A stretch of 64,000 nt of DNA from Candidatus Omnitrophota bacterium (GTDB taxonomy: Bacteria; Omnitrophota; Gorgyraeia; B26-G9), in the NCBI GenBank assembly GCA_043805415.1, contig JAZDHZ010000014.1, positions 10,393-74,392 on the forward strand, in the 5' to 3' direction. The notes below the pieces were generated by a model. That model saw nothing but the letters and a program-made list of their open reading frames with translations, was not told the origin of the DNA and made no database searches. Shown here in pieces: positions 31,310 to 49,944 of this stretch. A program made the translations under genes and the position numbers. How positions within the stretch are numbered: the stretch's first letter is position 1; each line of letters opens with the position of its first letter.

Positions 31310-31352
31310 AACAACCCAATATTATATGCGTTGTAAAACCTAAAATTAGTAA

Positions 31353-33236: not shown

Positions 33237-33566
33237 TTAAACCTTGAAACAGTGATATCCTTTTAAGGCGTCCAAAGCTGCGTAAGCCCAGGAACGATGT
33301 AGTTGCGAAGAATGTCCGTTTCCATCATTTAATCCGGCAATAGCCTCTACCGACCAAATCAGATTACCAAACTTTTCAGACATATAAGCATTCCCCATAT
33401 CTTCTTGTTTAGCTTTTTGCTTTAGATCTTCAGACAATGTTTTAATTTCAGTACAAATTCTATAATTATCACAAGAAGAATCATGCAACATACTACCAAC
33501 TAGGCACCTCATATGTTCCAGCGTGCTTTTTATATCCATACTATCCTCCTTATAGGATGTCTCCAT
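33237..33566 (-). CDS. Hypothetical protein (109 aa)
   Basis: ORF only. Confidence 0.3.
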   Translation of the reverse strand: METSYKEDSMDIKSTLEHMRCLVGSMLHDSSCDNYRICTEIKTLSEDLKQKAKQEDMGNAYMSEKFGNLIWSVEAIAGLNDGNGHSSQLHRSWAYAALDALKGYHCFKV

Positions 33567-33670
33567 TCTATATCCCGATTGTGATTATCTTTTTGATTAC
33601 CCCTAAATTTCTAATATTCCTACATCTTTAAACGTGTCGATCGTGCTTTCCAATCAGTGTAATCATTCTT

Positions 33671-34720
33671 TCACCAACGAAAACCAGCACCCACAGTAAC
33701 AACTGCTTCATCTTTAGTCTTTAAAAACCTCAAAAACGATAATCCTTCTCCGTCTAATATCTTTCGGGAGAGTTGTAGCTGAGCGCTGATGTTTTTATTC
33801 TGATCGTTTTTTAATTCAAAACTTATACTATCTTTATCAGTCAGCTTTGCTTCCGCTCCAAACGTAATTGCCCGAATATTTCCATTTTCATATTCCACTT
33901 CAAATACCAAGCCGATATCTTTTTTAATTTTCCATTTACCGCAAAGCGTGATTATCTGCTCTTCCGGACTCTTAGCCAAACCAATGCCTAATTCATATTT
34001 AATGTATTTATCTTTAAACACAGCCGCGCTGGTTTTAAAACTAAACACAGAATCAGACTGCAAATCCAAAACATAAGACAATCTGCCTTTATCTTTAATA
34101 TCCCAATAACCTTGAAATGTTAGAATATGAATATTTTTCTCTTTACGGATAAGCTGAGCTTTTTCGTATTGATAAATAATCTGATGCTGTTTGTTTATTT
34201 CCCAAGTTCCTTTAAAAGTAAGAATATCATAGCTGCCTTTTTCTTTTTGAACTCTAAATGTCAGACGATTGGCTTTATCTGCCTGCCATGCGCCTTTAAG
34301 CTGGAGAATATAGATTGATTGCATATTGTCTTTAGTATGAGTAGTAAGGCTAAAAGCTAAGGAATTTTTGGAAGTATCGATAATTTCTCCCTGAAGCGTT
34401 AATTTATCGCCAAGGGTTTCCCTGCCCCATTTATTAAGCTCTAGACAGAGATTATGGTCCTTATCTAAAGTCCAAACGCCTTCGAGTTTTACTTGATGCG
34501 GGATTTCTGTTCCTTCCGGAGTGGGTGCTTTAATAAGGTAAGTGAGTGTATTATCTTCGTCGATTTTGAAGCGGCCATCAAGAACCTGTCTGAATCTGGA
34601 CAGTTCGCTTTTCTTACCGGATTTATCGATAATCAATCGATTATACGGATCAATTTCATAAGTAACTTTTGGGTTATCCTGGCGTTTTGCCATAACCATC
34701 CTGTTTTTTAAAATTGTCAA
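33671..34720 (-). CDS. Hypothetical protein with about five tandem 45-50-aa internal repeats (G-x-W-x-[LI]-[DN]-K-x-x-x-L pattern)
   Basis: Repeat units visible by eye: EGVWTLDKDHNLCLEL, KGAWQADKANRLTFRV, KGTWEINKQHQIIYQY, QGYWDIKDKGRLSYVL, CGKWKIKKDIGLVFEV. Confidence 0.45.
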   Translation of the reverse strand: MTILKNRMVMAKRQDNPKVTYEIDPYNRLIIDKSGKKSELSRFRQVLDGRFKIDEDNTLTYLIKAPTPEGTEIPHQVKLEGVWTLDKDHNLCLELNKWGRETLGDKLTLQGEIIDTSKNSLAFSLTTHTKDNMQSIYILQLKGAWQADKANRLTFRVQKEKGSYDILTFKGTWEINKQHQIIYQYEKAQLIRKEKNIHILTFQGYWDIKDKGRLSYVLDLQSDSVFSFKTSAAVFKDKYIKYELGIGLAKSPEEQIITLCGKWKIKKDIGLVFEVEYENGNIRAITFGAEAKLTDKDSISFELKNDQNKNISAQLQLSRKILDGEGLSFLRFLKTKDEAVVTVGAGFRW

Positions 34721-34839
34721 TTTTCTAAACGCTTAACGCTATGCGCTATTTTTAATGATCAACTTCGTAAAAAACTTTAAATCTTTAAGCTATGCCCCCC
34801 CTTACTTATATGCTCATAGGAATATTAGGTATTTTGTGA

Positions 34840-35802
34840 TTAATTTTTAACCAACGATACTGTGTCACCTTCAATAAGAATCATGTCCTGTCCAGTAGAG
34901 TCTTTACTATATAAAGATACACTACCAACTATTTCTTGGGAATCTGTTGTAAAAGTTATGTCCTCACCTATCACATAAGCATATCTTGTTAATCCAGAGT
35001 TATATAATCCATCTTTTCCCTTAGGATACTGAGAAAACTTTACATCGTTATATTTTGACTTTAAGATATTAACAAACGCTTTTTCAGCATCTGCTACAAT
35101 TTTCTCTTTAGGTAAAGCTGGTTCAGCTAAAATATCATTAAAATCATCATTATAATCAAAAATAGAAATATTTAACTGTTCAATCTTAAAAAAGAACAAT
35201 ATCATTTCATCTGTAATGCGAGACCGTTCCATTTTTGGATATTCGTTTGATAATATTCGAATTCTTTTGTCGTGTGGCTTTATAACTAAGCGTGTCAAAC
35301 TATCTTCTTTTTTTGAAATTCCAACATAATGCAAATGATACTTTGTTAAATCCCGGAAATTATCGAAGCCTTTAATCCCAGGATGCCCCCTCCATTTGTC
35401 AAATAAGAATTTTTCAGTAGTAAACCAATCGACTACTTTAGTTCTTTCTTGTGTCTCCGTATCATTTTCCCATACCCTGATAAGCTTTTCACCAAATTCA
35501 AATTCAAGATCTGTATTTTTAATCGAAACTCCGTGACATTTAAGGATCTCATTAAAATCTATTTCACCTATTGATTTAACATTCTGCGCATAAAAAGTAA
35601 AAGGTGCTTTTAATTTTGATTGAAAATTAGTGCAAATAATATCCTCGTCAATCTCATACTTTCCTTCTTGACGCTGAGCCACCATATATAGGTTACTCTC
35701 TTTCAGAAGTTTTTGCACTTCAGGATCATCTTTTATCCACTCTGCCTCTTGGTTAGATATTGGAGGATAAACAAGTTTTAAAATATTTAGTTGTGATTTC
35801 AT
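34840..35802 (-). CDS. Hypothetical protein (320 aa)
   Basis: ORF only; same strand and close spacing with the flanking genes. Confidence 0.4.
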   Translation of the reverse strand: MKSQLNILKLVYPPISNQEAEWIKDDPEVQKLLKESNLYMVAQRQEGKYEIDEDIICTNFQSKLKAPFTFYAQNVKSIGEIDFNEILKCHGVSIKNTDLEFEFGEKLIRVWENDTETQERTKVVDWFTTEKFLFDKWRGHPGIKGFDNFRDLTKYHLHYVGISKKEDSLTRLVIKPHDKRIRILSNEYPKMERSRITDEMILFFFKIEQLNISIFDYNDDFNDILAEPALPKEKIVADAEKAFVNILKSKYNDVKFSQYPKGKDGLYNSGLTRYAYVIGEDITFTTDSQEIVGSVSLYSKDSTGQDMILIEGDTVSLVKN

Positions 35803-35884
35803 ATTATTTTCCTCTTATAACATTTGAGCTCAGGCAGAGCAAACGCGTAGCGTTTGCGATTGCCTGTAGCGAATCGTTATGCTT

Positions 35885-37039
35885 TTATAATTTTCCAGAG
35901 CTAGCTTTATCTGCTAATATTATAAATGCTAATGCGTCCATTAGAATTAAAAACTTCAAGGCTAATTCACGACATTCAAAATTAGTGAAAATTCCATGAA
36001 GTATTCCATGTCTATTTACTTCGCTTCTAGGGTCAGTAATTTTACTTATGTTACTCCAAAAAGATCCATCTTTTAATTCTGATACAATTACATCTAATAT
36101 TTTTTTGGGATAAAGCAAAAGCTTTCGAGAAATCACTAACTCTTGTAATTTATCAATTTTCTTTTTATATTCCCATCCATCAATTGCATTACCGTATTTA
36201 GCATATAAATAATCTCTAATGATGCCTTCAAATTGTGGACAAATAATGTAAATCGAAGCAACATAATCTTCTTTTAAATAAGCTTGGATTGATTTTTCTA
36301 TATATGAAATTCGATTATTGAAAAAACTTGCCTCTTTCCAGAATGTAATTTTATTATTCCAATAGGTCTCATTGAACTTTTTTTGAATAGTGTCTGCGGG
36401 AGAATCTGTATTAGAATTGTGCATCTCAATAAAAACTTCTGGATAATAATCTGGAGAAGGGGGCCAATTACATTCTTTAAGCTTTTGCATTTTTTCAAAA
36501 GGTTTAATGTTTTTAACAAAATTTCTTTCATAAAGTAATTGTACAATTGGGTATTTGAATTTTAAATCTGCTGGTTTTTTTTCTGAAAAATCAGGGGCAT
36601 TAGGTGAAAAATCAAAAACGAGATGGGGAGTCAAAAAAACTCTATTTAAAAATGCATAAGCACAAGGAATACCATTACTATCAGGTGGAATAATGAATGA
36701 CACATCTGGATTGGGATCAAGCTCGCTTAATTTTAATGTGGTGCCTACCATGTCCTCTGTGAATTCTCCTTCTTTTAGCTTTAATCTATATTGAATATTT
36801 ACCTCTTCATTTAGTTCAACGATATTTTCAATGCTACCGTTTTCTTTTTTAACTTGGTATGCTCTAAAAGAGTTGATTTCTATTGGCAAGTCAGTTTTAG
36901 AAATTTTTTTTAATTCTATTCTCTTTTCAATCTCGGGAATAACGAAAAGGCGTATCATATCAGAAATCGGACGATATTCCATAATTAATGATCGTTGATA
37001 AATAGTAATATTTTCTTTATTTTGGGTATTATTATTCAT
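35885..37039 (-). CDS. Hypothetical protein with C-terminal HEPN-like R-x4-H motif
   Basis: Motif SEVNRHGILHGIF about 45 aa from the C-terminus, in a predicted helical region; N-terminal 250 aa unassigned. Confidence 0.45.
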   Translation of the reverse strand: MNNNTQNKENITIYQRSLIMEYRPISDMIRLFVIPEIEKRIELKKISKTDLPIEINSFRAYQVKKENGSIENIVELNEEVNIQYRLKLKEGEFTEDMVGTTLKLSELDPNPDVSFIIPPDSNGIPCAYAFLNRVFLTPHLVFDFSPNAPDFSEKKPADLKFKYPIVQLLYERNFVKNIKPFEKMQKLKECNWPPSPDYYPEVFIEMHNSNTDSPADTIQKKFNETYWNNKITFWKEASFFNNRISYIEKSIQAYLKEDYVASIYIICPQFEGIIRDYLYAKYGNAIDGWEYKKKIDKLQELVISRKLLLYPKKILDVIVSELKDGSFWSNISKITDPRSEVNRHGILHGIFTNFECRELALKFLILMDALAFIILADKASSGKL

Positions 37040-37513
37040 ATTTTATTAGCATAACATTTAATATAATACCAGTCTGTTTTTCAGTAATTCCCTATTGTTT
37101 TTCTCTTCAACTAACAAGTCTTTGCCTGGAAACATGTCGTATTTTCTGCTTAATATCATGATATTAGCCTAGTCATTAAAATCGGATTTTTCAATTTTAA
37201 GCTTTAAAATCATCTCTTTTTCAAACATATTCTCTTTAAAACGCAGGCACAGAAAGCTGATTGTCATTAATCTTGTCGATTATTTGTCTGATATTCATAA
37301 TGTCCTCTTCCTTTCACAAAAACACTCTATTCCTATAATGCATTGCCTCCTGTTCCAACTAATCAATACTTCAAACAACGTCCCTTTCATCCATTATAGC
37401 TAAGTAATCCATGATAGGAGTTAAAAAATATTCACTATCTATCTTTCCAAAACTTTTATGTATGTCCCCAATATTCCTCTCTAGGTTAAAAATACACTTT
37501 AGGGCTTTGTAAC

Positions 37514-40500
37514 TCAGTCTTTTCTCCCTTGCAGGAACTGTTTCTTAGCCTCATTCAGCGCCTTATCTCTAAGTTTCTGTAGGTCAATTGGGTTGATACG
37601 ACCATAATACAGTTGCCTCCGATCAAAAGCGCAATTGAATGCTGAAATTAACGAGGCAGGTAGTGTATTGCCTTCGTATCGCACTAGAAGTTCATATATC
37701 TTTACATAGCCCATTTCGAGAATAGAAATTCGATCAGTCTCGGTTATAAAAGCCTGCAGCAGACCAGCATAACCAGGAAGTCGCAGATCGGCATAGATAC
37801 AAAGTAAGAGTAGCTTTTTAAGGTCATTTGTCGTAGTTTCTAGAATGCTTTCTATCGTTTTCTGTAAAGAAGCTGAACCAACATTTTGAGATAGGAATAC
37901 TTCACCTCCAATCGTAACCATGTATGCACACAAAGACGTGAATTGATCATCCTTCATCCCTTCGGAAAAAAGAGTGATCAGTTCCATATTACATTGCAAA
38001 TGAAAATCTAGAATTCGATCCAGTAACGTCTTTTTAATTTCAGCTGATATATGCTCGAGATTTCGAAACACATTATAGAAGGTCTTAAGCGCCATTATAT
38101 TCCATGCGACCTTTTCAATCTTATTTTTGGGAGGAGTTATCTTCATCATCCCTCGTCCAAGAGTACGATGATTTTTTTGATCCTCTTCAAACCCCTCATC
38201 TGCCTTTTCATAATCTAATTTCGAATCGATAGCATCTTTCGTCATTTTGTCTTTTTGTGTGCTTTCATGTTTCGGAGACAACAAATGATGTATATACTTC
38301 TCAAGATCTAAAGACGTCACTTGATTTGCAGGGGCATATTCTTCCTCAAGACATCGCATCAGCTCTTTCACTAGACTTTCTTCATCTCGATGTCGACCTG
38401 CATAATAAGCAAGTGAATCCCCTAACCGTAAAGCCGTATGAAGTCCTTGTAGATGTTCTTTAAGATTTATTTCGCTTGCCTCAACAGCTTGAGCTAAGTA
38501 GTAATTAAAAAAAACAATGCATGAAAAAAACACTACGCCCTGCGAATCAGTAATAATAATTCCCGATTTCTCAAGATGCTGAACAAACTTAGTTGCATCC
38601 ACATCCAGCGCCTTGTCTGAAAAATAGGCCAAGATTTGTTGTTCATAATCTATACGCAATATTCCCAAACTCCCTAGTCGATAACAAGCAGCGGCTAATT
38701 TCATAAGCATAAGACGAAGATTATAAATTGAGTAGTTGCTCGCCGGATCTGATTTGTCTAAACTATTCTCCTCAAGTCGTTCAAGAAGTCGAACAAAAGA
38801 TATACTCGTAATTTTTCCTCCAAATTCTAAAAAAACACGCAAATATAGCGACACCAAAAATGGGGTAACTGGGAGATCGGATAACGAAAGGCTATCCCAA
38901 ATGAATTTAACAGCTACATCGGTGTCTATTGCCAAACCAGTTGCCTCAAGGTAGCGAGTTGCAAATTCCCGAAGCCTACTGGGTCCCCAATAACGAAGAC
39001 GCAAAAACTTTATGTCTCTTTTATCTTGCGCTGCGGCAAGCATATCAAAAAGAACTTCATTCTTGAGGCAAATAACAATGTGCGGAATTACCTCAATGCC
39101 TGCTAATATTTTAGACACAATATTTATATCTGTTACTGATATATGATCAACAATCAAAGTCAAATCAACTGATGCAATGTCTGATTCGTCTATGTTGCTT
39201 TTCTTAATGATTTTTCTCAGTAGATTTTCCGGAGACTCAGCATCTTTAATATCCTCATAATTCACATAAACCGCGAGCCGTTTAGAACCAATTTTGTTAA
39301 TTCTCTGTGCAAGTTCTTCCAAAAAAAGCGTCGATCCAGCATCGGGAGGCGCATAAATTATACAAGTATGATCCATGGCAAAGCTGTAGGGATCTCTTAT
39401 TGTATCACCCTTCTTACCTTTCTTCTCCCATAATATCTCTTGAATAGACGGAATAAGTAGAATGGGAGGGTCAATTTGCTGTGCATTCTTAAGACTCGCC
39501 CCCATCTTCAAGCTTAGCGCAGAGTTAGTCTCCGTAACCTTTCTTGACAATGCAAGGCTCGCTTGATCTGCAAATGCTGAACTAGGCAAAGTGTACTTAA
39601 ATTCACCTTCAGGGGCATGATTAACATTGTGATCATATCTTAATCCTCCTCGTATAAATACACGAAACTTCGCATGTAATATCCCTTTTAAAGGATCCTC
39701 TATAGAATAAATGTTATATCCATCATTTCGCCCCCCCGGCACACCAGCAAAAAATGATGGAGCCATTAACTCAAGACAACCTCCTGAAGGGGTTGTGCTA
39801 GAAAGTGAATTTGTTTCATGATTATGTCCAGTTAAAATAATATCAAATTTTGATCTTAGGTCTTGTTGTACAATTTCTTGTTCAGAAGGATGAAACCAAG
39901 TCAATGGATGATGTATCAAAGCTATCTTAAAATCACAACCCTTGATTTTTTCTGCGAGCTCGTTAACTTGAATTCGCGTAAGAAATATTCTATTTTTTGT
40001 ATTATCATCAAAACAAGCCCAAGCTGAATCAAAAGCTGCAACCCCAACTTTTATTTTGTCTATCTGTATAATATGAGCTCTATAGGAATTACCTCTGGAT
40101 TTGCTGTACAAAGAATGTAAAAACTCAATATATTGCGTTTGCTGCGGAAGAATCAAGTCTCTATCTTCAAAAAGAGTTTGAGCTGTTTCCGTGTTGCTAA
40201 GCCGTGTGGATGCCCCATCACAAACCAAACTTTTAATTAGACCTCTCGTAATGTCATGATTGCCAGGACATACCACAATATCGCATGGTTTTATTCCGAG
40301 TTCTTTAACAACCGGACTAAAAAACTCATTCTGTGCTATACCATACTCTTCTGCAAGGCCTGAAAATGCTATATCGCCAGAGATAAAGATTATATGTGGT
40401 TTAACCTGAAGCTTTCGCAAGTCCTTCAGTAAAGCATCGCGTCGAATCCTAAACTCCGTTATTTCCTCATTGCGACAATGAAGATCAGAAAGATGCAATA

Positions 40501-40516
40501 ATGTTAAATCCCTCAT
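37514..40516 (-). CDS. Large (1000 aa) protein: N-terminal calcineurin-like metallophosphoesterase domain + degenerate P-loop NTPase-like region + helical C-terminal domain
   Basis: MPE motifs in order: LHLSDLH (D-x-H), GDIAFSG (GD), GNHD, HHP, GHNH. The downstream segment IIYAPPDAGSTLF...LTLIVDH resembles a degraded Walker A/B pair, followed by about 500 aa of helical sequence. Confidence 0.55.
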   Translation of the reverse strand: MRDLTLLHLSDLHCRNEEITEFRIRRDALLKDLRKLQVKPHIIFISGDIAFSGLAEEYGIAQNEFFSPVVKELGIKPCDIVVCPGNHDITRGLIKSLVCDGASTRLSNTETAQTLFEDRDLILPQQTQYIEFLHSLYSKSRGNSYRAHIIQIDKIKVGVAAFDSAWACFDDNTKNRIFLTRIQVNELAEKIKGCDFKIALIHHPLTWFHPSEQEIVQQDLRSKFDIILTGHNHETNSLSSTTPSGGCLELMAPSFFAGVPGGRNDGYNIYSIEDPLKGILHAKFRVFIRGGLRYDHNVNHAPEGEFKYTLPSSAFADQASLALSRKVTETNSALSLKMGASLKNAQQIDPPILLIPSIQEILWEKKGKKGDTIRDPYSFAMDHTCIIYAPPDAGSTLFLEELAQRINKIGSKRLAVYVNYEDIKDAESPENLLRKIIKKSNIDESDIASVDLTLIVDHISVTDINIVSKILAGIEVIPHIVICLKNEVLFDMLAAAQDKRDIKFLRLRYWGPSRLREFATRYLEATGLAIDTDVAVKFIWDSLSLSDLPVTPFLVSLYLRVFLEFGGKITSISFVRLLERLEENSLDKSDPASNYSIYNLRLMLMKLAAACYRLGSLGILRIDYEQQILAYFSDKALDVDATKFVQHLEKSGIIITDSQGVVFFSCIVFFNYYLAQAVEASEINLKEHLQGLHTALRLGDSLAYYAGRHRDEESLVKELMRCLEEEYAPANQVTSLDLEKYIHHLLSPKHESTQKDKMTKDAIDSKLDYEKADEGFEEDQKNHRTLGRGMMKITPPKNKIEKVAWNIMALKTFYNVFRNLEHISAEIKKTLLDRILDFHLQCNMELITLFSEGMKDDQFTSLCAYMVTIGGEVFLSQNVGSASLQKTIESILETTTNDLKKLLLLCIYADLRLPGYAGLLQAFITETDRISILEMGYVKIYELLVRYEGNTLPASLISAFNCAFDRRQLYYGRINPIDLQKLRDKALNEAKKQFLQGRKD

Positions 40517-40744: not shown

Positions 40745-40877
40745 ATTTTTCCTCTTTTAAAATGCGAGATAAGGAAGCGTTGCTTGATTAAACGATATTT
40801 ATTAATTTTTTCATAATACGTTTCTCTTTTCAATCAACGTCATTTTTTTCTCTCATTTAAATATCCCCCTCTTTAGC

Positions 40878-41390
40878 TTATGCAAGCAAAAGCTTGATTT
40901 GTTCAGCATTAAGATGTTTGGGCTCTTTATCTGAGATAGCTTTCCATGCTAACAACATTTCCTTATAGCGATTTAGTTTAGGAGCGTGAGAATTCATATC
41001 TGCTGACCGCTTAGGTAAAAATTTATTAGTTTCCCTTGCTTTACTTAGAAGGAATTCGGCATAACAATATTGTTCTGCTTCAAAGCTAAAGTCAAAGCCT
41101 TTAAATACTATTGCATCCTCATTAATATCAGCCTTATCTTCCAAATTCTCACATGACCATTGAATATCATTAAACATTGTTAAAATATCTTGAATTTCCT
41201 GATATTCTTCCACTGTCATTTGATTCTCTTCTATTGACATAAATAATTCTTCAAACTCTCTAAGATATCCCTTCTCTACTATTTTCTTTTTCTCAAGACA
41301 CAATTCTTTTTTTGAATCGCTAGAGTTTAAATATGCTAAAATTTCAAACTGGTTGGCAAGAATTAGTCTCTCACTTTTTGTTAATTCCAT
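40878..41390 (-). CDS. yfbU: YfbU-family protein (UPF0304/DUF1323)
   Basis: From internal Met: MELTKSERLILANQFEILAYL..., FKGFDFSFEAEQY, MLLAWKA align with E. coli YfbU (MEMTNAQRLILSNQY..., FLGFDAATEARY, MLNVWHA). Track ORF starts 13 codons upstream. Confidence 0.65.
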   Translation of the reverse strand: MELTKSERLILANQFEILAYLNSSDSKKELCLEKKKIVEKGYLREFEELFMSIEENQMTVEEYQEIQDILTMFNDIQWSCENLEDKADINEDAIVFKGFDFSFEAEQYCYAEFLLSKARETNKFLPKRSADMNSHAPKLNRYKEMLLAWKAISDKEPKHLNAEQIKLLLA

Positions 41391-41684
41391 TCCCCCCCCT
41401 TGTTTTATATTATGCTTGAATTTTATCACAAAAACTTCCTTTTAATCCACTCTTTTGGATCAGGCCACCATCCCGAGAAATCAAAAAATCTATATACATC
41501 ATTCATTTTAAAATCTCCTTTATTTTCTCCAAACCACAACATTTATAATATCTTCAATTACACACAACATTCAATCCCACCTACTCCAGTTTCCATTTTT
41601 AAAAATATATTTTCCCTCTATCGAAGCAGACAGGCTGTCTATGCCTTCAAGGCTTTTATTCTTCTCAATAATCTTTAAATCTCA

Positions 41685-43949
41685 TCAGAGAATCCCTACA
41701 AATTCAGCTACAAAATGCAGCTTTAATGAAATGTCACCATCCTTCTGATCAAAAACTAATGGTGAGTATGATTTATTTTTGGGAAGAAGCTCAACTCGAA
41801 TGTTAAAACCATCTTCTCCCTTATGACTTTGATATCCCTTAATTGTATACGATCCCCCCGTATGTGGATCTGGTTCTCCCTGATATTGAAAAAGATAAAT
41901 TCCTCCTCTTTGTGAATATGGTCCTGCAGGATTAGCTTTAAAAATACAATAGTCACCATTTTTTATTCTTGGTTCCATAGAATCTCCAACTGCGCGGACA
42001 ACAAACATCGTCTCATCTAATCCCTTTCGATCGACAAAAACCCATCTATCTTCTTTTACTTCCATCCCATCAGCAAATTTACCGCAGGCAGCAGCTAAGG
42101 AATAAACTGGTAGATATTTACTAGAATCTTCACCCTCTGGAATAACATCACTGAAAAACAAATCAGAAACCAGTCTATTGCCATTAACTGGAGTATCTCG
42201 AATATTTGAAAGCCACTCGTTAGCAAGGCTATCAATTCTATTCTTCCACCTGGGTCCTCTCTCATGCCGATATTCCAAACATGAAATAATTAACTTTAAG
42301 AGTTCCTCTGGATGAAACGGGTTTTTTAAAAATTCCCTTAAAACATCACGAAGTTGCCCTATTGTGAGCGGAACGATATTAATTTCGACCTCTTCATCAT
42401 TTGAGGTGTACCAACAATCTCTTCGAAAAGTTTCCGCAGTATTACTATTAATATCAGGTGCAAGAAAAAGACCATAAACTTCTTTATCTGACTCTTTAAC
42501 TATATCTGCTACATGCCTTCTTACTGTCTCACCTTCAGCTGCTTCTTGTCGTGATGAACTTGTTAGAGTAACTTCAATTACTAAAACAAAATTATCAAAT
42601 TCAAAAATCATATCAGGACCACCTCCAGGAGCTGGATGACGAGGCAGCATATCTTCATCAATAAGAAACCGTCTTGTGTTATGTGCTGGCACAGCAATAT
42701 GGTCAATGGCTAAAAACGCCCTCCACACAATCCACTCCAAATAAGTTGGAGGGTCAACAATATGCTTCATGGCTTGTCGTCTCCCCGTAGCAAAAGCATC
42801 CAAATATTCTAAAATATCAGTAACCGAGTCCTCATGCGCTTGTTCTATTGCAAATTTTTCCTCTTCACTTTGAGCAAATAATTCAATTAACTTATACCTC
42901 TCTTTTTCTAATATTCTAACATCAGTCTCAACTGATAAATTCTCTGCACTTTTCGGAACAGCTTTTCCATCATCTGTTAATTGTGATGCCAACTTTCCAA
43001 TTTCATGCAAAGCAAAAGAAGGATTATCCATTGGCAAAGATGAACCTCGATAAAATTCTTTTAAATATTCCACCTTTCCTTCTTCATGTAAAATCCGCGG
43101 TTCTTCTTCGAGAATAGCTTTTATAATATCAAGTTTGTTTTCCCTTAAAACAATGGCGCCACCTCTAAAAGATAACAATCCGGTCATCCTACTATAACGA
43201 ACTGTAGTATCGGCATAATCACCTAAAGTCCCGAATTGCACCCCGCCCTCAAGCCCTTTAGCTTCTAATATAGCCCTATCAAATGCTTTTAAGTTATTCC
43301 TGCCACTCACTTCACTTCGCCTTTGTCTATATTCAAGAATCTCTTTAACTGTCCTCTCCACCTCAGCAACATCATGTTTTCTAAACAATTGCAAAAAAGC
43401 CGCCATCTCAATTTTTTTTAAACCGCTTTGTTCCCGCTCTCTTAATACAAACAATACTTGCAGCAAGAAAATAAATGGCTTCATTATTTCACCCTGAAAA
43501 CTTGATTCAATCTGTGACGGAATCTCAAGACACCGCAATTGTCTTAAAAAAACATCTGAAATTGCACCACTAGAATCGGCATTCACCAATAGCTTTCCTG
43601 CTGGGGTCAACTCATAAAGCTTCCCCGATAATCCTAGATCCTGACAAAGTTCCTTAAATGAATCCTGAAATCCTTTATTAAATTTATCGGTAACAAAACC
43701 CAGCTTCACAAAAACATTTCTCCATTTCCTTCCAAACCAGGACGGCTCACTTCCTGCAGTGCTTATGATGCCCTCATCATGCAATTTTCTTGTAAACGCC
43801 GCCTCTTGTTCTGCGCCATATACATTTCCCTGAAAATGTTTAGCGAACACAATAAGACCTTCTTGAATCCTATTTGGATTTCGAACAGTTGTATTTCCTA
43901 AATCCCAAACTCTTCTCGGCATAAAACTCCTAGTATGCAACAAATACAT
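41685..43949 (-). CDS. Candidate type IIS restriction endonuclease partner of the adjacent two-domain MTase, with C-terminal LexA/S24-like (GDSMEP) beta-barrel domain
   Basis: 754-aa ORF overlapping the MTase stop by 20 nt (operon). C-terminal about 110 aa contains VGDSMEPRIKNGDYCIF, the S24 peptidase-fold signature. The N-terminal 600 aa is unassigned; calling it an endonuclease is an inference from context. Confidence 0.4.
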   Translation of the reverse strand: MYLLHTRSFMPRRVWDLGNTTVRNPNRIQEGLIVFAKHFQGNVYGAEQEAAFTRKLHDEGIISTAGSEPSWFGRKWRNVFVKLGFVTDKFNKGFQDSFKELCQDLGLSGKLYELTPAGKLLVNADSSGAISDVFLRQLRCLEIPSQIESSFQGEIMKPFIFLLQVLFVLREREQSGLKKIEMAAFLQLFRKHDVAEVERTVKEILEYRQRRSEVSGRNNLKAFDRAILEAKGLEGGVQFGTLGDYADTTVRYSRMTGLLSFRGGAIVLRENKLDIIKAILEEEPRILHEEGKVEYLKEFYRGSSLPMDNPSFALHEIGKLASQLTDDGKAVPKSAENLSVETDVRILEKERYKLIELFAQSEEEKFAIEQAHEDSVTDILEYLDAFATGRRQAMKHIVDPPTYLEWIVWRAFLAIDHIAVPAHNTRRFLIDEDMLPRHPAPGGGPDMIFEFDNFVLVIEVTLTSSSRQEAAEGETVRRHVADIVKESDKEVYGLFLAPDINSNTAETFRRDCWYTSNDEEVEINIVPLTIGQLRDVLREFLKNPFHPEELLKLIISCLEYRHERGPRWKNRIDSLANEWLSNIRDTPVNGNRLVSDLFFSDVIPEGEDSSKYLPVYSLAAACGKFADGMEVKEDRWVFVDRKGLDETMFVVRAVGDSMEPRIKNGDYCIFKANPAGPYSQRGGIYLFQYQGEPDPHTGGSYTIKGYQSHKGEDGFNIRVELLPKNKSYSPLVFDQKDGDISLKLHFVAEFVGIL

Positions 43950-45875
43950 ATTCTAGAACTCTATTAGCATTATCTCCCACTTTATGCCCATGAGTTCCAA
44001 ATGAGTATAGATGTTCTACTTGATGAACAATAACTTCATCTTTATATTTTTTAAGCAAATTAATCATCTGACTCTTCGAGGGTATAGAATTTGATGAATA
44101 CGAAACAACTAAAATGCTATCTTGAAATTTTTGAAACAATGAATCAAAAGCTGAAAAAATAGTATCTTTTGAAGAAAATGGCGTATTGTATTTTTCAAAC
44201 TTTTTTGTCTTTGTATGAAGCTGTATTTTTAAACCTTCCCATTGTCGAGTTAGTCCCTCAATAAAATGATAGCGCCGAGTATAATCATTATCTGAACTCT
44301 TAGAGCAATATGGAGGGTCTATATATACCAAATCAGCCTTAACATCTAATTTGAATATATCACCAGTAAATGATTCATTTTTAAACCCATTATTAAATAC
44401 CGCGTGATTAAAGGCTTCGACATTTTCCAAAAAATGTTGCCTCAAATCAATCTTCATATCTCTTCTTCCATCATCATATTTATGACCAACATAAGTAAAA
44501 ATTCCGCGTGCTCTACGCTTCAAACAGGCTCTATTTAAAGCGGAAAGGGCTAATGCCCTCTTGTATTCATTACCAAGCTGCTCAATTCTACTTCTCATTG
44601 AATCTAAAAATTGATTTTCCTCATCACTAAAATATAACCCCTTAAATGTTGTTGATATAAACTTATTATTTTTGAGATTATATGACAACAATATCTCTAC
44701 ATCTTTTTTATCCAACACGACTTTAGAATTTTGAATTAAAGCTTTGGAAAGTTGACCACAAAAAGACATAAAATCATTACTAATAACTTTTTTCTTTTGC
44801 TGTTTAAACATATACGACACACAAGCGCTACCAGAAAAAGCATCAATAACTGTGTCAAAAGGAAGGTCTTTTACGCAATCCCAAATAAATGGTAAAACCC
44901 TATATTTGCTACCCATAAAACGTGTACCTGGAAATTTCTCTAATATTTGTTTTCCTTGCAAAGAAAAATAAGAAGGCGTCTTTTTCTGCGGCTTAGTTGC
45001 TATAACTATAAGATCTTGCCCTGTTCTCGTTGCTGCATTACAACTAATATTTCGTCGAGTTTTAACTGCCTTATATTGAAAATTATCATACAGCTTACGA
45101 ACAAACTCAGCATTTGAATTGGTCAAAAGAACATAAACGCCTCTACCGACTAATTCAGAAACTAAATCCCTTAATTCAATATGGTCTTCCTCATAAAATA
45201 ATTCTTTTGTGTACCGCTTAAAATCTGAAAAACCTCCAACGGGATAATAAGGTGGGTCAAAAAAGACAAAATCTCCTTCCTCTGCATGTTTTTTTACAAC
45301 ACTAACATAATTATCACAAATCAAATTTACACCCTGCAATGCACGGTGCGCATTAAGCAATTTAACTTCTTCGCAAATTGTTGGATTCTTACGACTTCCA
45401 AAAGGAACATTAAATTTACCTTCTTTATTAACCCGATACAAACCATTATAACAAGTCTTGTTTAAAAAAATAAATCTGGCAGCTCTTTTTACAACACTTA
45501 ATTTATTAGGATTTTGTTGTCGTACCTTATAATAGACCTCTTCGTCGTTCTTATATTTTTTCAATGCCCCTATAAGATTATCAAGATCATCCCTCAAAAC
45601 CTTATAGCAGTTAACCAACTCTTCATTGCTATCAGATAAAATAGCTTTGGCAGGTAACAAACTAAAAAACAAAGCCCCTCCCCCAGAAATGGCTCGAAAT
45701 ATCTCTTATAAGAAGCTGGAACATATTTTTCCAACTCAGGAATAAGCTGTGTTTTTCCTCCAGCCCATTTCAAAAAAGGCTGACCTTTAAACTTTCCTAA
45801 TTTTTTTACTATGTTGTCTTGAGAATTATTCTTCATATACAAATTATCTGCTTTCGTTAATTCCTCTAAACTCAA
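43930..45875 (-). CDS. DNA adenine N6-methyltransferase with two Dam-like (D12 class) domains; reading frame interrupted in a G-run (frameshift or sequencing error)
   Basis: Two DPPY motifs (YFFDPPYYP and YIDPPYCS). The N-terminal [11 protein letters not shown]...YFEPFLGEG lies in ORF 45594-45875 and continues in another frame as (GGGA)[25 protein letters not shown] in ORF 43930-45672. The break is at gggggagggg, 45676-45685. Confidence 0.7.
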
Positions 45876-46159
45876 TATGAAACTCGAAAAACATTACCCA
45901 AAATAATTTATTCTTAAGCTTTATAGTCAGAAAAGAACAACGTTGTTTAATTAATATTGCCCTAATCCATTTTTCTTTTTCAATCAACAGCCATCTTATC
46001 ACTTACTTAAACATCTCTCTTACGCATTTTCTCTGCTTCTTTATAAAATATCTTTAGTCCGTCAATTCCTCGACCCATTACATGGTGTGACAACATCCGG
46101 AATAATCTAATCGCGCTTGCATTGTTATTCTTTATTTCTACCATGTATTGTTTGCTCTA

Positions 46160-46465
46160 TTAACTAATCAATTTATCAAACAACGTCCCACTCTTCCGTC
46201 CTCGAGCGTCAGTTTGAGTCATATTACGAAATGTGCTAAATTTATCGAGGATGTTACGAGCAAGGTCAATCGCGCTAGTACCCTTGGTCCCAGTGCGCAG
46301 AAGAATGGCCAAAAGCTCTGACTTACTCAAAGTTCTTGCCCCATTCTTGAGCAATTTCTCTCTGGGCCGATCATCTACTGGCCAATTCTTTATAGCTTGC
46401 TTATTAACTTTACTAATCTTTTTTTCTTTTTTCATTTTTATTTCCATAGCGAAGATTCTTTCCAA
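46160..46465 (-). pseudogene. RadC N-terminal (HhH) fragment; JAB/MPN domain missing
   Basis: WPVDDRPREKLLKNGARTLSKSELLAILLRTGTKGTSAIDLARNIL matches the RadC N-terminus; the ORF stops after 101 aa. Confidence 0.6.
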
Positions 46466-47328
46466 TTATCCGAAAATCCCATACTCCAGCGAGAAATCTC
46501 TGGATATTCATCAAGCAAGCTGCAAAGCCGCGCTTTCCAATTGCTTTGCGGTGCAATAATTTTTAACAAATAATGAAAAATTGTCAAAACTCCAAAGATT
46601 CTATTTTGACTTATAGCAACAGGTTCATGCCACTGCGGATATTTTTTCTTTCTCGGGATATATGGTTTAACTCCCATCTCTCTATTCCAAAGACGGCTAT
46701 GGTGCGCACATATATTGCGAATAACATTTATCGTCTTAAGCCATGATGTCAAAATCTCGTCAGGAATACCATAATGATTTGCTATCTTTTGTTTAATCTG
46801 ATCAGAAACCCCTCTATACATTGTCAACGCACAGCCAAACGACATAATCTCACCAGCCATCCAAAGCGGTAAATACTCATGACAATCTCCATATTTAACT
46901 TTAAAATGATCAACAAATTTTTCTTTACTTCGAGCCACCTCATCGGTAATAGTTTTTATTAAGCGCTCATGTTCTTCGGAAGTTAGTTTTGGAAAATTAG
47001 CTTGATTGGTGTAACCAGATGCTCCGATAGTATGGGCAAGAGTATAAATTAATTGAGTTTTAATGGAGACTTCAAATCTCTCGATAGCATCCATAACAAT
47101 TAAACGCAGCCTACGGTCAAATGTATAATGACGCCACACCTTTTGAAATGTAATACCTGATTTAAAATTATCGTTGGACTTGCGATAGGGATAAAGATAA
47201 CCGCTTAATCTGTAATAATTGACATTCTTTAAGCAATCAATCAGTAAAGCCTTGTCAACAATAAGACCGCGTTTAATTAATAGATCTGCCTGCGCTTCTA
47301 AAGTTAATGGGGGCTTAGTGTATTTCAC
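46438..47328 (-). CDS. Abi_2-family abortive infection protein (AbiD/AbiF type)
   Basis: Family hallmarks: N-terminal LIKRGL, NYYRLSGY; C-terminal VIRNICAHHSRLWNRE (RNxxAHH). Confidence 0.8.
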   Translation of the reverse strand: MKYTKPPLTLEAQADLLIKRGLIVDKALLIDCLKNVNYYRLSGYLYPYRKSNDNFKSGITFQKVWRHYTFDRRLRLIVMDAIERFEVSIKTQLIYTLAHTIGASGYTNQANFPKLTSEEHERLIKTITDEVARSKEKFVDHFKVKYGDCHEYLPLWMAGEIMSFGCALTMYRGVSDQIKQKIANHYGIPDEILTSWLKTINVIRNICAHHSRLWNREMGVKPYIPRKKKYPQWHEPVAISQNRIFGVLTIFHYLLKIIAPQSNWKARLCSLLDEYPEISRWSMGFSDNWKESSLWK

Positions 47329-47528: not shown

Positions 47529-47747
47529 TTACTCCTCTAAAAAATTCCCCGCTGGTTTATTAAGAACCTTGGCGATCTTCATTAGTGTTTCAATTGACGG
47601 CATGGTTATTCCGGATTCATAGCGTGAAATGCTTTTTTGCTTAGCATCGATTTTTTCTGCCAGCTCGGTTTGAGTTAAATCTGATTCCACGCGAGCCAAT
47701 TTAATTTTCTTGCCCAATTTTTTCGCGTCCATTTTCCTCCTTGACAA
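47529..47747 (-). CDS. XRE-family helix-turn-helix transcriptional regulator
   Basis: LTQTELAEKIDAKQKSISRYESG classic HTH_3 pattern; sits directly upstream of the Abi_2 gene. Confidence 0.8.
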   Translation of the reverse strand: MSRRKMDAKKLGKKIKLARVESDLTQTELAEKIDAKQKSISRYESGITMPSIETLMKIAKVLNKPAGNFLEE

Positions 47748-48184: not shown

Positions 48185-49909
48185 ATGAAAGCAGCAATAT
48201 ATACCCGATATTCCTCGGAAAATCAAAGCGAGAAAAGTATTGATGATCAGGTCAGAGTTTGCAAAAACTATTGCCAAGATCATGATATTATTGTTTGCGA
48301 TGAACATATTTATATTGATGAGGCTGTATCCGGCTCTTTGATCAACCGCCCGGGATTGCAGGCTTTGGAAAGAGCCGCGGAGAGCAAGGAATTTGGCGCG
48401 GTGATTGTCGATGATTTATCCCGATTATCGCGCAGTAATCATCAAATGCTGACCTTGGTTTTAAAATTTAATTATTATCAGGTTACTTTGATCTCAGTTT
48501 CCGACGGTATTGTTACCGACGATGAAAACTCCAAGCTGGGCATTCAGATGCGCGGACTGATTAATGAATTATATTTAGATGATCTGCGCAAAAGAACCTT
48601 GCGCGGTTTGGAAGGTCAGAAATTGCGCGGATTCAGCGGCGGTGAAAATGTTTATGGCTATCTCTCTCAGCCTGTAGGCGAACTAAGACTTAATAAACGC
48701 GGACAAGCAAAATATGAAGGCAGAGTTCATAAAATCAATCCTGATGAAGCGGAAATTGTGCGCAGAATATTTAAAGAATTTATTGCCGGCGATAGTATTC
48801 ATCGCATTGTCCATAGGCTGAATGAGGATAAAATCCCAACCAAAAAACGGCTGATCGGCGGCTGGAATATATCCACTGTGTCGAGAATTCTTAAACATGA
48901 GAAATATATTGGTATTTGGGACTGGAGAAAATATAAGAACGTTAGAGATCCGATGACCGGTAAGAAAAAGGTTATCCGCCGGCCGGATAAAGACCGCTTG
49001 CCGCTATTTCGCGAAGATTTGATGATTATTGATAAAGACTCTTGGGAAAAAGTTCAAGACAGACAAAGCAAACTTAAAGGCACCTGGCCGGTAAGCAAGG
49101 AAAGAAAAACTGCTTGCCAGCAAAAAAGCTATGTACACACCAGCCCCACGCATTTATTCTCAGGATTTATGCACTGCAAACTCTGCAACAGCGCGATTGT
49201 CCTGATCAGCGGCAAAGGTTCAGGGTATTATGGCTGTTATAATGCCAAACGTAAGACCTGCACGAATACCCTGCTGATTTCCCGCAATAAAATCGAAGCA
49301 AAAATCATTCTAGCACTTAAAGAAGAAATCCTGACTTCAGAAAAAATTGATTATGTCTATCAGCAAGTGGAAAAAGCTGCTGCCGCAGGGCTTAATCAAG
49401 TCCCAGAATTAGTTAAGAAAAAGAAAGCCCTGCAATCAAAGCTTGAGCAGGAAATCCAAAATTATCTTAATTTTATTAAACTGGGGAATATGTCTAAAAC
49501 AATATCTGAGGCATTAAACCAAGCGGAAAAACAAAGCGAAGAGTTAAATAAGGAAGTTAATTCCCTGGAATTTCAAAAAGCAAACAGTTTTAAAGCTCCG
49601 CCTAAGGAGTGGATTGATCATCGCTTGGATACTTTAAGAGATACGCTGAATAAGAATGCAGTTGCTTCCGGACTGGCAATTAAGGAATTGCTGGGACCAA
49701 TCAAGCTTGAGCCGATTTTAAGCAAAGACGCTGACTTTTACCAGCTTTTAAGCGATAGCGAAAAAGCATTTAAGCCATATTATGTAGTGCATACAAAAAT
49801 TCAAACCCTTGCGCTATTAGATGATGAGCACAAGGGTTCGAATTGGTTTCAATGGCGGAGAGGCTGGGATTCGAACCCAGGGACCCAGTTGCCCAGGTCA
49901 ACTGCTTAG
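48185..49909 (+). CDS. Large serine recombinase (resolvase N-terminal domain + recombinase + zinc ribbon); ORF tail overlaps tRNA-Ser
   Basis: AIYTRYSSENQ (catalytic Ser region), LSRLSR, recombinase-domain and Cys-rich zinc-ribbon (CKLC...CYNAKRKTC) regions. The last about 19 codons (WRRGWDSNPGTQLPRSTA) are the antisense reading of the tRNA. Confidence 0.85.
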   Translation: MKAAIYTRYSSENQSEKSIDDQVRVCKNYCQDHDIIVCDEHIYIDEAVSGSLINRPGLQALERAAESKEFGAVIVDDLSRLSRSNHQMLTLVLKFNYYQVTLISVSDGIVTDDENSKLGIQMRGLINELYLDDLRKRTLRGLEGQKLRGFSGGENVYGYLSQPVGELRLNKRGQAKYEGRVHKINPDEAEIVRRIFKEFIAGDSIHRIVHRLNEDKIPTKKRLIGGWNISTVSRILKHEKYIGIWDWRKYKNVRDPMTGKKKVIRRPDKDRLPLFREDLMIIDKDSWEKVQDRQSKLKGTWPVSKERKTACQQKSYVHTSPTHLFSGFMHCKLCNSAIVLISGKGSGYYGCYNAKRKTCTNTLLISRNKIEAKIILALKEEILTSEKIDYVYQQVEKAAAAGLNQVPELVKKKKALQSKLEQEIQNYLNFIKLGNMSKTISEALNQAEKQSEELNKEVNSLEFQKANSFKAPPKEWIDHRLDTLRDTLNKNAVASGLAIKELLGPIKLEPILSKDADFYQLLSDSEKAFKPYYVVHTKIQTLALLDDEHKGSNWFQWRRGWDSNPGTQLPRSTA

Positions 49910-49944
49910 CAGGCAGCTCCGTTCGGCCACTCTGGCACCTCTCC
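49853..49944 (-). tRNA. tRNA-Ser (anticodon GCT), long variable arm
   Basis: Minus strand GGAGAGG...anticodon loop CTGCTAA...long extra arm...T arm GGGTTCGAATCCCAG...CCTCTCC-G-CCA. Confidence 0.85.

Follow-up and report, generated by a model that had tools for sequence, protein, structure and literature searches.

The AlwI restriction–modification system recognizes GGATC, which R.AlwI cuts at 4/5, and its two m6A methyltransferases are joined in one chain, M.AlwI (PMC4081073). AlwI is a homodimer that gives a nickase when its C terminus is altered (PMC3017599), and endonucleases of this family have been reported always to be paired with a fused adenine-Dam methyltransferase (PMC12898733). In LexA, cleavage parts the DNA-binding domain from the dimerization domain and uncovers ClpX signals that had been latent (bioRxiv 10.1101/2022.09.18.507959). 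After DNA damage, restriction is alleviated through ClpXP, with HsdR as the target (PMC3874165).

The minus strand of a Candidatus Omnitrophota MAG carries a two-gene locus that is an AlwI-type type IIS restriction–modification system, composed of a fused double D12 methyltransferase and an AlwI-family endonuclease. The pair belongs to a defence island of low GC content that has integrated at a tRNA-Ser gene; the stretch of DNA analysed (the window) is 64,000 nucleotides long. Taken alone, the gene pair and a frameshift within it are ordinary. The nuclease consists of a complete AlwI-like enzyme followed by a flexible linker and a complete LexA/UmuD/cI-type S24 module.

The gene pair and the nuclease core

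The endonuclease is encoded within a 754-aa ORF (41685–43949), on which residues are numbered here. Its likeliest start is ATG 43922 (MPRRVW...), which gives 745 aa and is also the start in the NCBI record and in all homologues; a GGAG lies 5 nt ahead, overlapping the methyltransferase stop TAG 43932–43930. With this start the two genes abut without overlap. The preliminary description, which had the 754-aa ORF overlapping the methyltransferase stop and took it for the nuclease by position, was right about the nuclease, given the RE_AlwI match, and wrong about the overlap.

43923..43932, minus strand: methyltransferase stop TAG fused to the ribosome-binding site GGAG, which precedes the nuclease ATG by 5 nt
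42201..43922, minus strand: AlwI-family type IIS endonuclease core, residues 10–583, defined by profile, fold and catalytic residues
42735–42737, minus strand: E405, equivalent to N.BspD6I E418
42612–42614, minus strand: D446, equivalent to N.BspD6I D456
42573–42575, minus strand: E459, equivalent to N.BspD6I E469
42534–42536, minus strand: E472, equivalent to N.BspD6I E482

The core matches RE_AlwI (PF09491) over residues 82–534 (2.8e-92; 310 bits against a cut-off of 23.1; profile positions 2–439 of 441) and the PADLOC profile REase_II (PDLC03463) over residues 14–583 (4e-91; positions 3–567 of 570). A nuclease-family match had been set beforehand as a check, and the AlwI family and N.BspD6I were found both by sequence (1.9e-29 against N.BspD6I in the PDB) and by structure, the AlphaFold model (pLDDT 80) aligning in Foldseek with N.BspD6I entries 2ewf/6qnz at E ~1e-25 and a target TM of 0.73 over ~630 columns. 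E405, D446, E459 and E472 are invariant across 12 homologues, and a single active site of the PD-(D/E)XK type is present. The Pfam, NCBIfam and PADLOC matches to an AlwI-type pair thus bear out the earlier assignment to a type IIS-like module.

The recognition site is most probably GGATC/GATCC, and cleavage would fall outside it at 4/5, judging from the family and the Dam-family methyltransferase partner. GGATC is not avoided in the window (95 observed versus 107 expected). At four homologous loci an intact double-D12 methyltransferase of 628–637 aa is followed directly by an S24-fused AlwI gene; beyond these two genes, no further common neighbour was found among the four.

A LexA-type S24 module at the nuclease C terminus

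The additional C-terminal part, ~170 aa in total, is made up of a disordered linker of ~30 aa and the S24 module.

42117..42200, minus strand: linker, residues 584–611, predicted disordered at 586–603, with the motif SDLFFSDVIPE
41688..42116, minus strand: LexA-type S24 self-cleavage module, residues 612–754, defined by profile, structure and dyad conservation
42081–42086, minus strand: putative cleavage site C622–G623 in the strand LPVYSLAAAC|GKF, LPVYSLAAACGKF
41979–41981, minus strand: Ser657, putative nucleophile, aligning with LexA S119 (G-x-SM)
41838–41840, minus strand: Lys704, putative general base, aligning with LexA K156 (T-V-K)

Residues 620–735 match Peptidase_S24 (PF00717) at 9e-8 (32.3 bits, cut-off 23.3), and a profile of the module finds LexA (2e-5) and UmuD (4e-4) in the PDB. 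The AlphaFold model of the module (pLDDT 83) has LexA, lambda cI or UmuD as all 35 of its 35 best Foldseek PDB matches, with target TM values of 0.6–0.73. Across 149 diverse modules G655, M658 and K704 are present in all 149 and S657 in 148; around the predicted scissile bond, [A/C]622 is found in 144, G623 in 130 and F625 in 142. Profile, structure and conservation of the catalytic dyad therefore uphold the earlier recognition of an S24 (LexA/UmuD/cI)-like C terminus. In 13 of the 149 modules, including those of the AlwI homologues P0004–P0006 (AVAT), the P1′ residue is Thr and not Gly. Changes at the P1′ Gly of LexA block cleavage, so some modules may not cleave, or may cleave differently.

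Among the 120 best nuclease homologues 8 bear the S24 tail and 112 lack it, and the non-fused AlwI homologues have the same length as the core. The appendage had been called unusual for a restriction enzyme; this holds among AlwI enzymes and fails across restriction enzymes at large, where it recurs.

The module on other enzymes

Many defence enzymes that target DNA and are otherwise unrelated end C-terminally in this same module, whose key residues hardly vary. A search with it matched 2452 representative clusters at E<=1e-3; a distinct S24 subfamily, drawn at E<=1e-30, comprises at least 474 clusters. Fusion partners include ResIII/HsdR, Type_ISP_C, MmeI-type, SLFN-g3 helicase, UvrD and Mrr_cat, as well as HNH, GIY-YIG, PLD, TnsA-like, RE_LlaJI, DpnI_C, DUF2075-helicase and IIG; the commonest are whole subunits of classical restriction systems (type I HsdR, type ISP/IIG and AlwI). 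Among 80 species genomes, 76 have the module ending no more than 15 aa from the stop, and in 39 of the 47 untruncated cases at least 500 aa precede it. Of eight scanned genome proteins with the module, four are complete HsdR subunits of type I systems. The linker motif SDLFFSDVIPE is common to HsdR- and TnsA-like-fused modules. The (A/C)-G site and its flanking LP.Y.L.AA..F strand are conserved over modules that share only 30–50% identity, and two restriction enzymes that are 90% identical bear S24 modules only 38% identical.

The module occurs mostly in uncultured lineages (Omnitrophota, Planctomycetota, Paludibacteraceae and picocyanobacteria). In tblastn searches of a phage and a plasmid collection, it was absent from the former and matched once in the latter. 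Its mainly uncultured hosts and its rarity in these collections may be why it escaped study; a full-text literature search found no description of such S24-tailed restriction enzymes.

The methyltransferase and its frameshift

The methyltransferase is a single chain with two Dam-class m6A domains, one per strand of the asymmetric site, and is encoded by two minus-strand ORFs in different frames, 45594–45875 (93 aa) and 43930–45672 (580 aa), which jointly form one gene as first described.

45681..45836, minus strand: methyltransferase 5′ piece, codons 1–52 (MKNNSQ...KWAGGK...EPFLG), in the upstream frame, aligning with the N termini of intact homologues
45675..45684, minus strand: frameshift site GGGGGAGGGG, with G5 at 45680–45684; the three successive Gly codons of AdoMet-binding motif I lack one G
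43930..45680, minus strand: methyltransferase 3′ piece to stop TAG 43930–43932, comprising the complete C-terminal D12 domain and what remains of the N-terminal Dam-family domain
45247–45258, minus strand: DPPY motif of the N-terminal Dam-family domain
About 43933–44940, minus strand: C-terminal D12 domain, with DPPY at 44308–44319

Addition of one G to the G5 run rejoins the frames, restoring GGGALFF as had been predicted, and yields a 635-aa protein with ATG 45836 as its likely start. The run had been correctly singled out as the point of the switch, with coordinates (45676–45685) one base off. The repaired protein aligns with intact homologues over its whole length at 71% identity (618 aa aligned); it matches PF02086 in two stretches (5.5e-84) and TIGR00571 (6e-89; 298 bits, cut-off 114.85), with DPPY motif IV at residues 194 and 507, one per D12-class domain. 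The 580-aa ORF matches the 643-position PADLOC MTase_II profile from position 62 on. These matches and the documented AlwI arrangement (PMC4081073) confirm the two-domain, Dam-like, type IIS organization with two DPPY motifs proposed at the outset, although the first motif had been misread as YFFDPPYYP; the actual letters differ.

As written, the frame is interrupted in motif I (EPFxGGG) by the one G missing at 45680–45684, and the N-terminal methyltransferase domain cannot be made. The frameshift is the sole lesion in the gene and is unique to this MAG among top homologues, the other 119 of 119 being full length (586–705 aa). The same glycines are encoded in three homologues by GGA GGA GGG, GGT GGT GGT or GGT GGT GGG, so that a conserved G tract is absent from the three compared. 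Because the lesion is single, unique to the MAG and outside a conserved repeat tract, it points to a recent mutation or a consensus error and not to a phase switch.

The leading cause, itself held a little short of even odds, is a real, recent inactivating mutation, tolerated thanks to protection of GGATC by another Dam-type methyltransferase or to poor expression of the nuclease. The window holds ~660 homopolymer runs of at least 5, some of them longer G/C runs, inside long intact ORFs, which indicates an assembly without a general indel problem; the NCBI record has the identical sequence, with the methyltransferase called as the 580-aa piece, and AlwI sites can be protected by a single GATC methyltransferase (PMC4081073). 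An intact nuclease beside a broken cognate methyltransferase would, however, be an unstable state, and the remainder of the gene is without decay. No near-identical second copy of the methyltransferase was found in the protein collection.

An error in the MAG, made in sequencing or in the consensus, with the true gene having G6 and being intact, is a substantial possibility that we place second. It would account for a lone lesion in an otherwise fully open gene with 71% identity to an intact homologue and for a downstream nuclease that keeps every catalytic residue; the site is a homopolymer, and strains can be mixed in MAG consensus sequences. Against it, no further homopolymer frameshift is evident across the 64 kb, and a run of G5/G6 is short for a systematic error.

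A phase-variable or slippage-prone on/off switch, acting in DNA or through ribosomes slipping by −1 on CUG GGG G, is very improbable and the least supported of the three causes first offered: slippage by −1 past the GGG codon would yield exactly ...EPFLGGGALFF and phase-variable methyltransferases are known (for example, the TA repeat in M.MhoVII; PMC12898733), but a long simple-sequence tract kept among relatives was not found, the tract being G5 (G6 if intact) and lacking from the homologues above, all other top homologues are full length, and a methyltransferase off with the nuclease on would be lethal, not regulatory.

A proposed built-in switch of restriction

We put at roughly 55% the probability of the explanation as a whole, in which an AlwI-type pair has suffered an incidental frameshift, by very recent mutation or consensus error, and the S24 tail of its nuclease works by LexA logic. 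The tail would keep the nuclease in a particular state, most probably as a tethered dimer able to cut both strands, because each chain of an AlwI-type enzyme has a single active site and dimerization is required. A signal, most likely RecA–ssDNA filaments in DNA damage or recombination, would trigger self-cleavage at C622|G623 and detach the dimerizing tail, with loss of double-strand cleavage as the most likely outcome; the newly exposed ...LAAAC C terminus (consensus ...LKAAA) may also lead to degradation. The net effect would be a built-in restriction alleviation, probably turning restriction off during DNA damage, though the switch may run the other way.

Some points count against this scheme. 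S24/S26 peptidases require small residues at P1 and P3 in any case, so the Ala-rich new C terminus need not be a degron, and a link of the module to Clp proteases on that ground is a guess. Non-fused AlwI enzymes work without the module, which is thus unnecessary for basic dimerization. The divergence of the modules on two 90%-identical enzymes is fitted better by a variable, possibly phage-encoded, partner than by conserved RecA.

The module could instead be a pro-enzyme latch, which we regard as unlikely: the full-length nuclease would be held inactive or less active until self-cleavage, induced by a phage protein or by RecA filaments formed on intermediates of phage replication or degradation, freed it as a second line of defence. 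Such a latch would agree with the conserved dyad and cleavage site, with partners outside classical restriction–modification whose constant activity could be toxic (SLFN-g3 helicases, HNH, GIY-YIG, PLD and Mrr), and with module swaps between near-identical restriction enzymes, which suggest an arms-race interface. Protease-activated nucleases are reported from other defence systems (PMC12799240). The commonest partners nevertheless argue against a latch, as classical subunits are already methylation-controlled and need no activation; non-fused, core-length AlwI homologues are active enzymes, and the documented need after DNA damage is for switching restriction off (PMC3874165).

Less probable still is a non-catalytic structural add-on serving, for example, constitutive dimerization or partner binding without self-cleavage: the C-terminal domains of LexA and UmuD are dimerization domains, double-strand cuts by AlwI-type enzymes need dimerization and a minority of modules have Thr at P1′, but nucleophile, base and substrate strand would then be dispensable, contrary to their conservation (Ser657 in 148 of 149, Lys704 in 149 of 149) and that of the cleavage-site strand in such divergent modules.

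Returning to self-cleavage by LexA logic, the presence of a complete LexA-like self-cleaving domain on many unrelated restriction enzymes suggests an undescribed built-in off/on switch for restriction. More tentatively, the distinct module may be a portable self-cleaving control element that couples restriction to a DNA-damage or infection signal, and that bacteria and some archaea have fused C-terminally to the cutting or translocating subunits of at least eight unrelated enzyme kinds, including type I HsdR. In the off direction this would amount to cis-acting, ClpXP-independent restriction alleviation, and in the on direction to damage-triggered activation of restriction; the module swaps point to an arms race over the trigger. 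To our knowledge, only in some type I systems (ClpXP on HsdR) is it understood how cells escape being killed by their own restriction at unmodified sites made by repair or recombination; for type II, III, ISP and IIG enzymes this is essentially an open question. A fused LexA-like module on DNA-cutting subunits would, if the reading is right, be a simple, testable answer, and the SOS signal would reach beyond transcription factors to enzymes. Being apparently portable, the module could serve as a damage-responsive protein switch.

Comparison with known systems

The locus resembles phasevarions and the TA repeat of M.MhoVII, among type II/III methyltransferases, in having a homopolymer where the methyltransferase frame breaks. 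It differs from phase-variable methyltransferases in that the G5/G6 tract is too short, is not conserved and lies in an essential motif of a methyltransferase paired with a predicted active nuclease.

With the AlwI system and its structural relatives N.BspD6I/N.BstNBI, MlyI and PleI it shares the full-length RE_AlwI profile match, the N.BspD6I fold and catalytic residues, and a fused double Dam-class methyltransferase directly upstream, in methyltransferase-then-nuclease order; the specificity assigned here derives from that family. Unlike them, its nuclease has the C-terminal linker and S24 module and its methyltransferase is frameshifted.

The module has the fold of LexA, lambda cI and UmuD (family S24, RecA-stimulated self-cleavage), with a Ser–Lys dyad aligning with S119/K156 of LexA and a predicted (A/C)-G scissile site ~35 residues ahead of the Ser; the strand leading up to this site is similar to PVFS..V.AGMF of cI. 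In contrast to these proteins, its N-terminal partner is a nuclease, translocase or restriction–modification enzyme and not a repressor DNA-binding domain or a polymerase accessory peptide, and it forms a distinct subfamily with insertions of its own (a DPETGG hairpin and a W..H segment).

Type I restriction alleviation in E. coli has the purpose proposed here, less restriction when repair creates unmodified sites, and controls the same subunit, as complete HsdR proteins bear the module. There, control is exerted in trans by ClpXP on translocating complexes, whereas here it would be exerted in cis by a fused self-cleaving domain.

An AlwI-type nuclease with an S24 tail

The 754-residue ORF at 41685–43949 (minus strand) is a full-length match to RE_AlwI (2.8e-92) that also matches Peptidase_S24 (9e-8, above the curated cut-off). 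The nuclease it encodes is identical to the NCBI protein 'MAG: AlwI family type II restriction endonuclease [Candidatus Omnitrophota bacterium]', which lies on a 75-kb contig. Its nuclease core, residues 10–583, spans the whole of the 570-position PADLOC REase profile. The protein aligns with the nickase N.BspD6I (1.9e-29), retaining the equivalents of residues E418, D456, E469 and E482, which are invariant in 12 homologues, and its AlphaFold model (pLDDT 80) matches N.BspD6I structures with an E-value of ~1e-25 and a TM score of 0.73.

Translation most likely begins at the ATG at 43922 (MPRRVW...), which agrees with the start in all homologues and in the NCBI protein and is preceded by a GGAG that overlaps the stop codon of the methyltransferase (MTase) gene. 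With this start the two genes abut, and the overlap of the nuclease ORF with the MTase stop proposed in the preliminary description disappears. The nuclease is then 745 residues long, and Gly623, Ser657 and Lys704 of the 754-residue numbering become residues 614, 648 and 695. An intact double-D12 MTase of 628–637 residues lies directly upstream of the S24-fused AlwI homologue in four loci, which share no other neighbour. In the AlwI system itself the nuclease has the specificity GGATC 4/5 and is accompanied by a single chain that unites two MTases, each acting on one strand; a plain GATC MTase also protects (PMC4081073). Every AlwI-family nuclease is reported to have a fused adenine-Dam MTase as its partner (PMC12898733). 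The nuclease and MTase form a standard AlwI-type restriction–modification (R-M) system, for which family membership suggests GGATC specificity. Avoidance was not seen in the window for either GGATC (95 observed versus 107 expected) or GAGTC (36 versus 46), counts that carry no information on specificity.

The methyltransferase frameshift

The MTase is encoded on the minus strand by ORFs at 45594–45875 (93 residues) and 43930–45672 (580 residues), and NCBI annotates the 580-residue piece only. Around 45675–45684 the sequence reads ...GAG CCA TTT CTG GGG GAG GGG CTT..., and adding one G to the G5 run (45680–45684) fuses the two ORFs into a 635-residue MTase that starts at ATG 45836 and reads ...KWAGGK...EPFLGGGALFF.... 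The repaired protein matches the D12-class N6-adenine methyltransferases twice (PF02086, 5.5e-84), and its score of 298 bits with the Dam-subfamily profile TIGR00571 is above the cut-off of 114.85; the 580-residue piece covers positions 62–643 of the 643-position PADLOC type II MTase profile (3.6e-215). DPPY motifs lie at 45247–45258 and 44308–44319. ORFs and profile matches agree with the preliminary description of an MTase in two frames with two DPPY motifs, a partner nuclease and an S24-like tail; the G run is present one base away from where it had been placed, and the first DPPY motif had been read with one residue wrong.

The lesion is single: aligned with the intact enzyme of the homologous locus L001, the repaired MTase shows 71% identity over 618 residues and no second lesion. 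The other best MTase homologues are 586–705 residues long in 119 of 119 cases; a near-identical intact MTase was not found in the protein collection, in which the nearest are 70–73% identical. The N-terminal MTase domain as written has neither motif X nor motif I and cannot function.

For the break, a genuine deletion of very recent origin and a one-off error in the consensus are about equally likely. A single consensus error at the G5 run is possible, and a generally error-prone assembly is unsupported as the cause, because the ~660 homopolymer runs of at least five bases in the window, including G/C runs of 6–8, sit within long uninterrupted ORFs. A phase switch at the run is unlikely and was rejected as the main reading: the tract is short, with only G6 in an intact allele, and no repeat tract is conserved at this position, the Gly-Gly-Gly codons of three MTase homologues being GGA GGA GGG, GGT GGT GGT or GGT GGT GGG. 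The frameshift is an ordinary one.

The S24 tail carries a predicted self-cleavage module

Behind the nuclease core, a linker predicted to be disordered (residues 586–603) leads to residues 612–753, which form a confidently folded β-barrel in the AlphaFold model. When the last 170 residues were modelled separately (pLDDT 83), the 35 best PDB matches were all LexA, lambda cI or UmuD, and a profile of the module likewise matches LexA and UmuD in the PDB. In the profile alignment GxSM corresponds to LexA Ser119, TVK to Lys156 and LPxNxxFxPI to the LexA sequence LPENSEFKPI. Upstream of the barrel lies the strand LPVYSLAAAC/GKF (slash, putative scissile bond), which resembles the published cleavage-site strands of cI (PVFS..VQA/GMF), LexA (VAA/G) and UmuD (C/G). 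The candidate bond lies 34 residues from the Ser of the module. Conservation was counted in an alignment of 149 modules.

Conservation of residues among 149 aligned S24 modules (numbering of the 754-residue nuclease)
Gly655: 149/149 modules
Ser657: 148/149 modules
Met658: 149/149 modules
Lys704: 149/149 modules
Asp694: 149/149 modules
Trp636: 147/149 modules
P1 Ala or Cys: 144/149 modules
P1' Gly: 130/149 modules; Thr in 13
Phe625: 142/149 modules

The nucleophile, the base and the module's own substrate strand are all preserved, which argues that the module is not kept for structure alone. Alignment and modelled fold together predict that the tail holds every element of a LexA-type self-cleavage module; modules with Thr at P1' may be non-cleaving.

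Residues 593–603 of the linker (42141–42173) read SDLFFSDVIPE, a motif also present in the homologous proteins P0128–P0130. It recurs in S24 modules whose fusion partner is an AlwI, HsdR or TnsA-like nuclease and is missing from most other modules. SDLFF was considered as a β-clamp-binding motif and rejected, being found in a subset only and fitting the QL[SD]LF consensus poorly.

Recurrence and exchange of the module

The module is found in 8 of the 120 best AlwI homologues. Two of these homologous proteins, P0002 and P0006, share 90% identity over the nuclease but only 38% over the S24 module; for the window protein and P0102 the corresponding values are 35% and 48%. These incongruent identities indicate that the module has been exchanged, and the S24 tail is swapped as a cassette between closely related AlwI enzymes (loci L001–L004 versus L005; P0006).

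A search with the tail alone recovered the same module, together with SDLFFSDVIPE, behind a type I HsdR C-terminal domain and a TnsA-like endonuclease. A profile search of 1.84 billion representatives yielded 2452 clusters with E-values of 1e-3 or lower, 474 of them at E ≤ 1e-30; the proteins matched are as long as 1878 residues and have the module at their C-terminal end. Pfam scans of the matches identified as partners SLFN-g3 (DUF2075) helicases; Type ISP specificity domains with Eco57I/MmeI-type methylase modules; ResIII/SWI2-SNF2 motors, one UvrD-type helicase and one DEAD-MZB-REase protein; and Mrr_cat, HNH, GIY-YIG, PLD, RE_LlaJI and DpnI_C domains. HTH proteins made up 7 of 96.

With one genome scanned per species, the module was present in 246 genomes, mostly MAGs, from Omnitrophota, Planctomycetota, Paludibacteraceae/Prevotella, picocyanobacteria, Chloroflexi, Acidobacteria, Myxococcota and Patescibacteria, and from two archaea. 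Among the 80 loci retained, 76 have the module ending no more than 15 residues from the stop codon, and 39 of the 47 that are untruncated have 500 residues or more ahead of it. Eight large proteins scanned from these genomes comprised four complete type I HsdR subunits, two type ISP/IIG enzymes, one Res-like motor and one HIT-PLD-helicase; S24-fused HsdR proteins include those of loci L018 (Candidatus Omnitrophus magneticus) and L031 (Paludibacteraceae). The shared architecture is a module with conserved catalytic and substrate elements, placed almost always at the C-terminus of a DNA-cutting or DNA-translocating subunit. Searching with the module by tblastn gave one match in the plasmid collection, on a 1.8-Mb Halomonas replicon, and no match in the phage collection.

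Two other fusions look broken. At locus L008 (5166–8858) a 921-residue HsdR is followed by a separate 296-residue ORF consisting of a repeated HsdR C-terminal domain and the S24 module; at L009, from Halomonas (4968–7438), a DUF2075-like helicase ORF, assigned by sequence, is overlapped by an S24 ORF that lies in another frame.

The surrounding defence island

The R-M genes lie in a low-GC stretch at ~26–48 kb (GC 0.32–0.38 versus 0.40–0.43), which is a defence island containing the following genes.

27114–28523, minus strand: SLFN_AlbA_2+HATPase_c_4 (Schlafen-type)
31353–32894, minus strand: PtuA-like ATPase (PADLOC)
37514–40516, minus strand: 1000-residue Metallophos+STAND protein (PADLOC PDC-S60; NCBIfam DS8-like, far below cut-off)
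40878–41429, minus strand: YfbU (Pfam)
46438–47328, minus strand: AbiD/Abi_2
47529–47747, minus strand: XRE HTH

Seven neighbouring ORFs (28873–37039) had no Pfam match, and among those at 30419–31309, 31353–32894, 33671–34720, 34840–35802 and 35885–37039 PADLOC matched only the PtuA-like ATPase (31353–32894). The island ends at tRNA-Ser(gct) (49853–49944), into which a 574-residue large serine recombinase ORF (48185–49909) reads from the opposite strand; no direct repeat of the tRNA marking an island end was found in 24–51 kb.

Adjoining the MTase promoter region is a RadC-like gene (46160–46465, minus strand) that retains the N-terminal domain only (UPF0758_N, 101 residues), and a 68-nt stretch overlapping it (46130–46197) recurs at 37325–37392 with 74% identity. 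Two intergenic regions of the island share a 115-nt direct repeat (26826–26940 and 32906–33020, 82% identity), and a 44-nt repeat (40827–40870 and 45977–46020, 73% identity) lies just upstream of the DS8-like and MTase gene starts on the minus strand; the 44-nt repeat may be a shared regulatory sequence or mark the edge of a cassette. Immediately 5' of the Pfam-supported YfbU start is a C8 run (41392–41399), which is G8 in the coding sense and exceeds in length the run where the MTase frame breaks.

Possible function and relation to known systems

An AlwI-type enzyme carries a single active site in each chain and works as a homodimer, and an altered AlwI C-terminus produces a nickase (PMC3017599). 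In LexA and cI the S24 domain is the dimerisation domain, and RecA filaments induce self-cleavage; the cut parts this domain from the functional one, and latent signals for ClpX become exposed (bioRxiv 10.1101/2022.09.18.507959). On the likeliest reading, the S24 tail would tether two nuclease chains, or set their activity otherwise, and on a signal, most likely RecA–ssDNA filaments, would remove itself at Cys622–Gly623. Restriction would then drop while repair creates unmodified sites, which would amount to restriction alleviation acting in cis. Clp proteases might in addition degrade the cleaved enzyme from its new C-terminus, which would end in ...SLAAAC in this protein and in ...SLKAAA in the module consensus; the small residues there are also required by the peptidase itself.

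The main rival to cleavage lowering restriction is a pro-enzyme, in which cleavage would activate the nuclease. As to the trigger, the exchange of modules among nearly identical nucleases may point to a partner that varies, and not to RecA.

A search of the full-text literature, whose coverage leaves out most subscription journals, found no description of S24 domains fused to restriction enzymes, and an earlier mention in a comparative-genomics survey is possible. Public annotation presents the nuclease as an AlwI-family endonuclease only. Type I restriction is known to be switched off after DNA damage by the action of ClpXP on HsdR (PMC3874165); the S24-tail pattern, which includes HsdR, extends to numerous families of enzymes and lends itself to direct testing.
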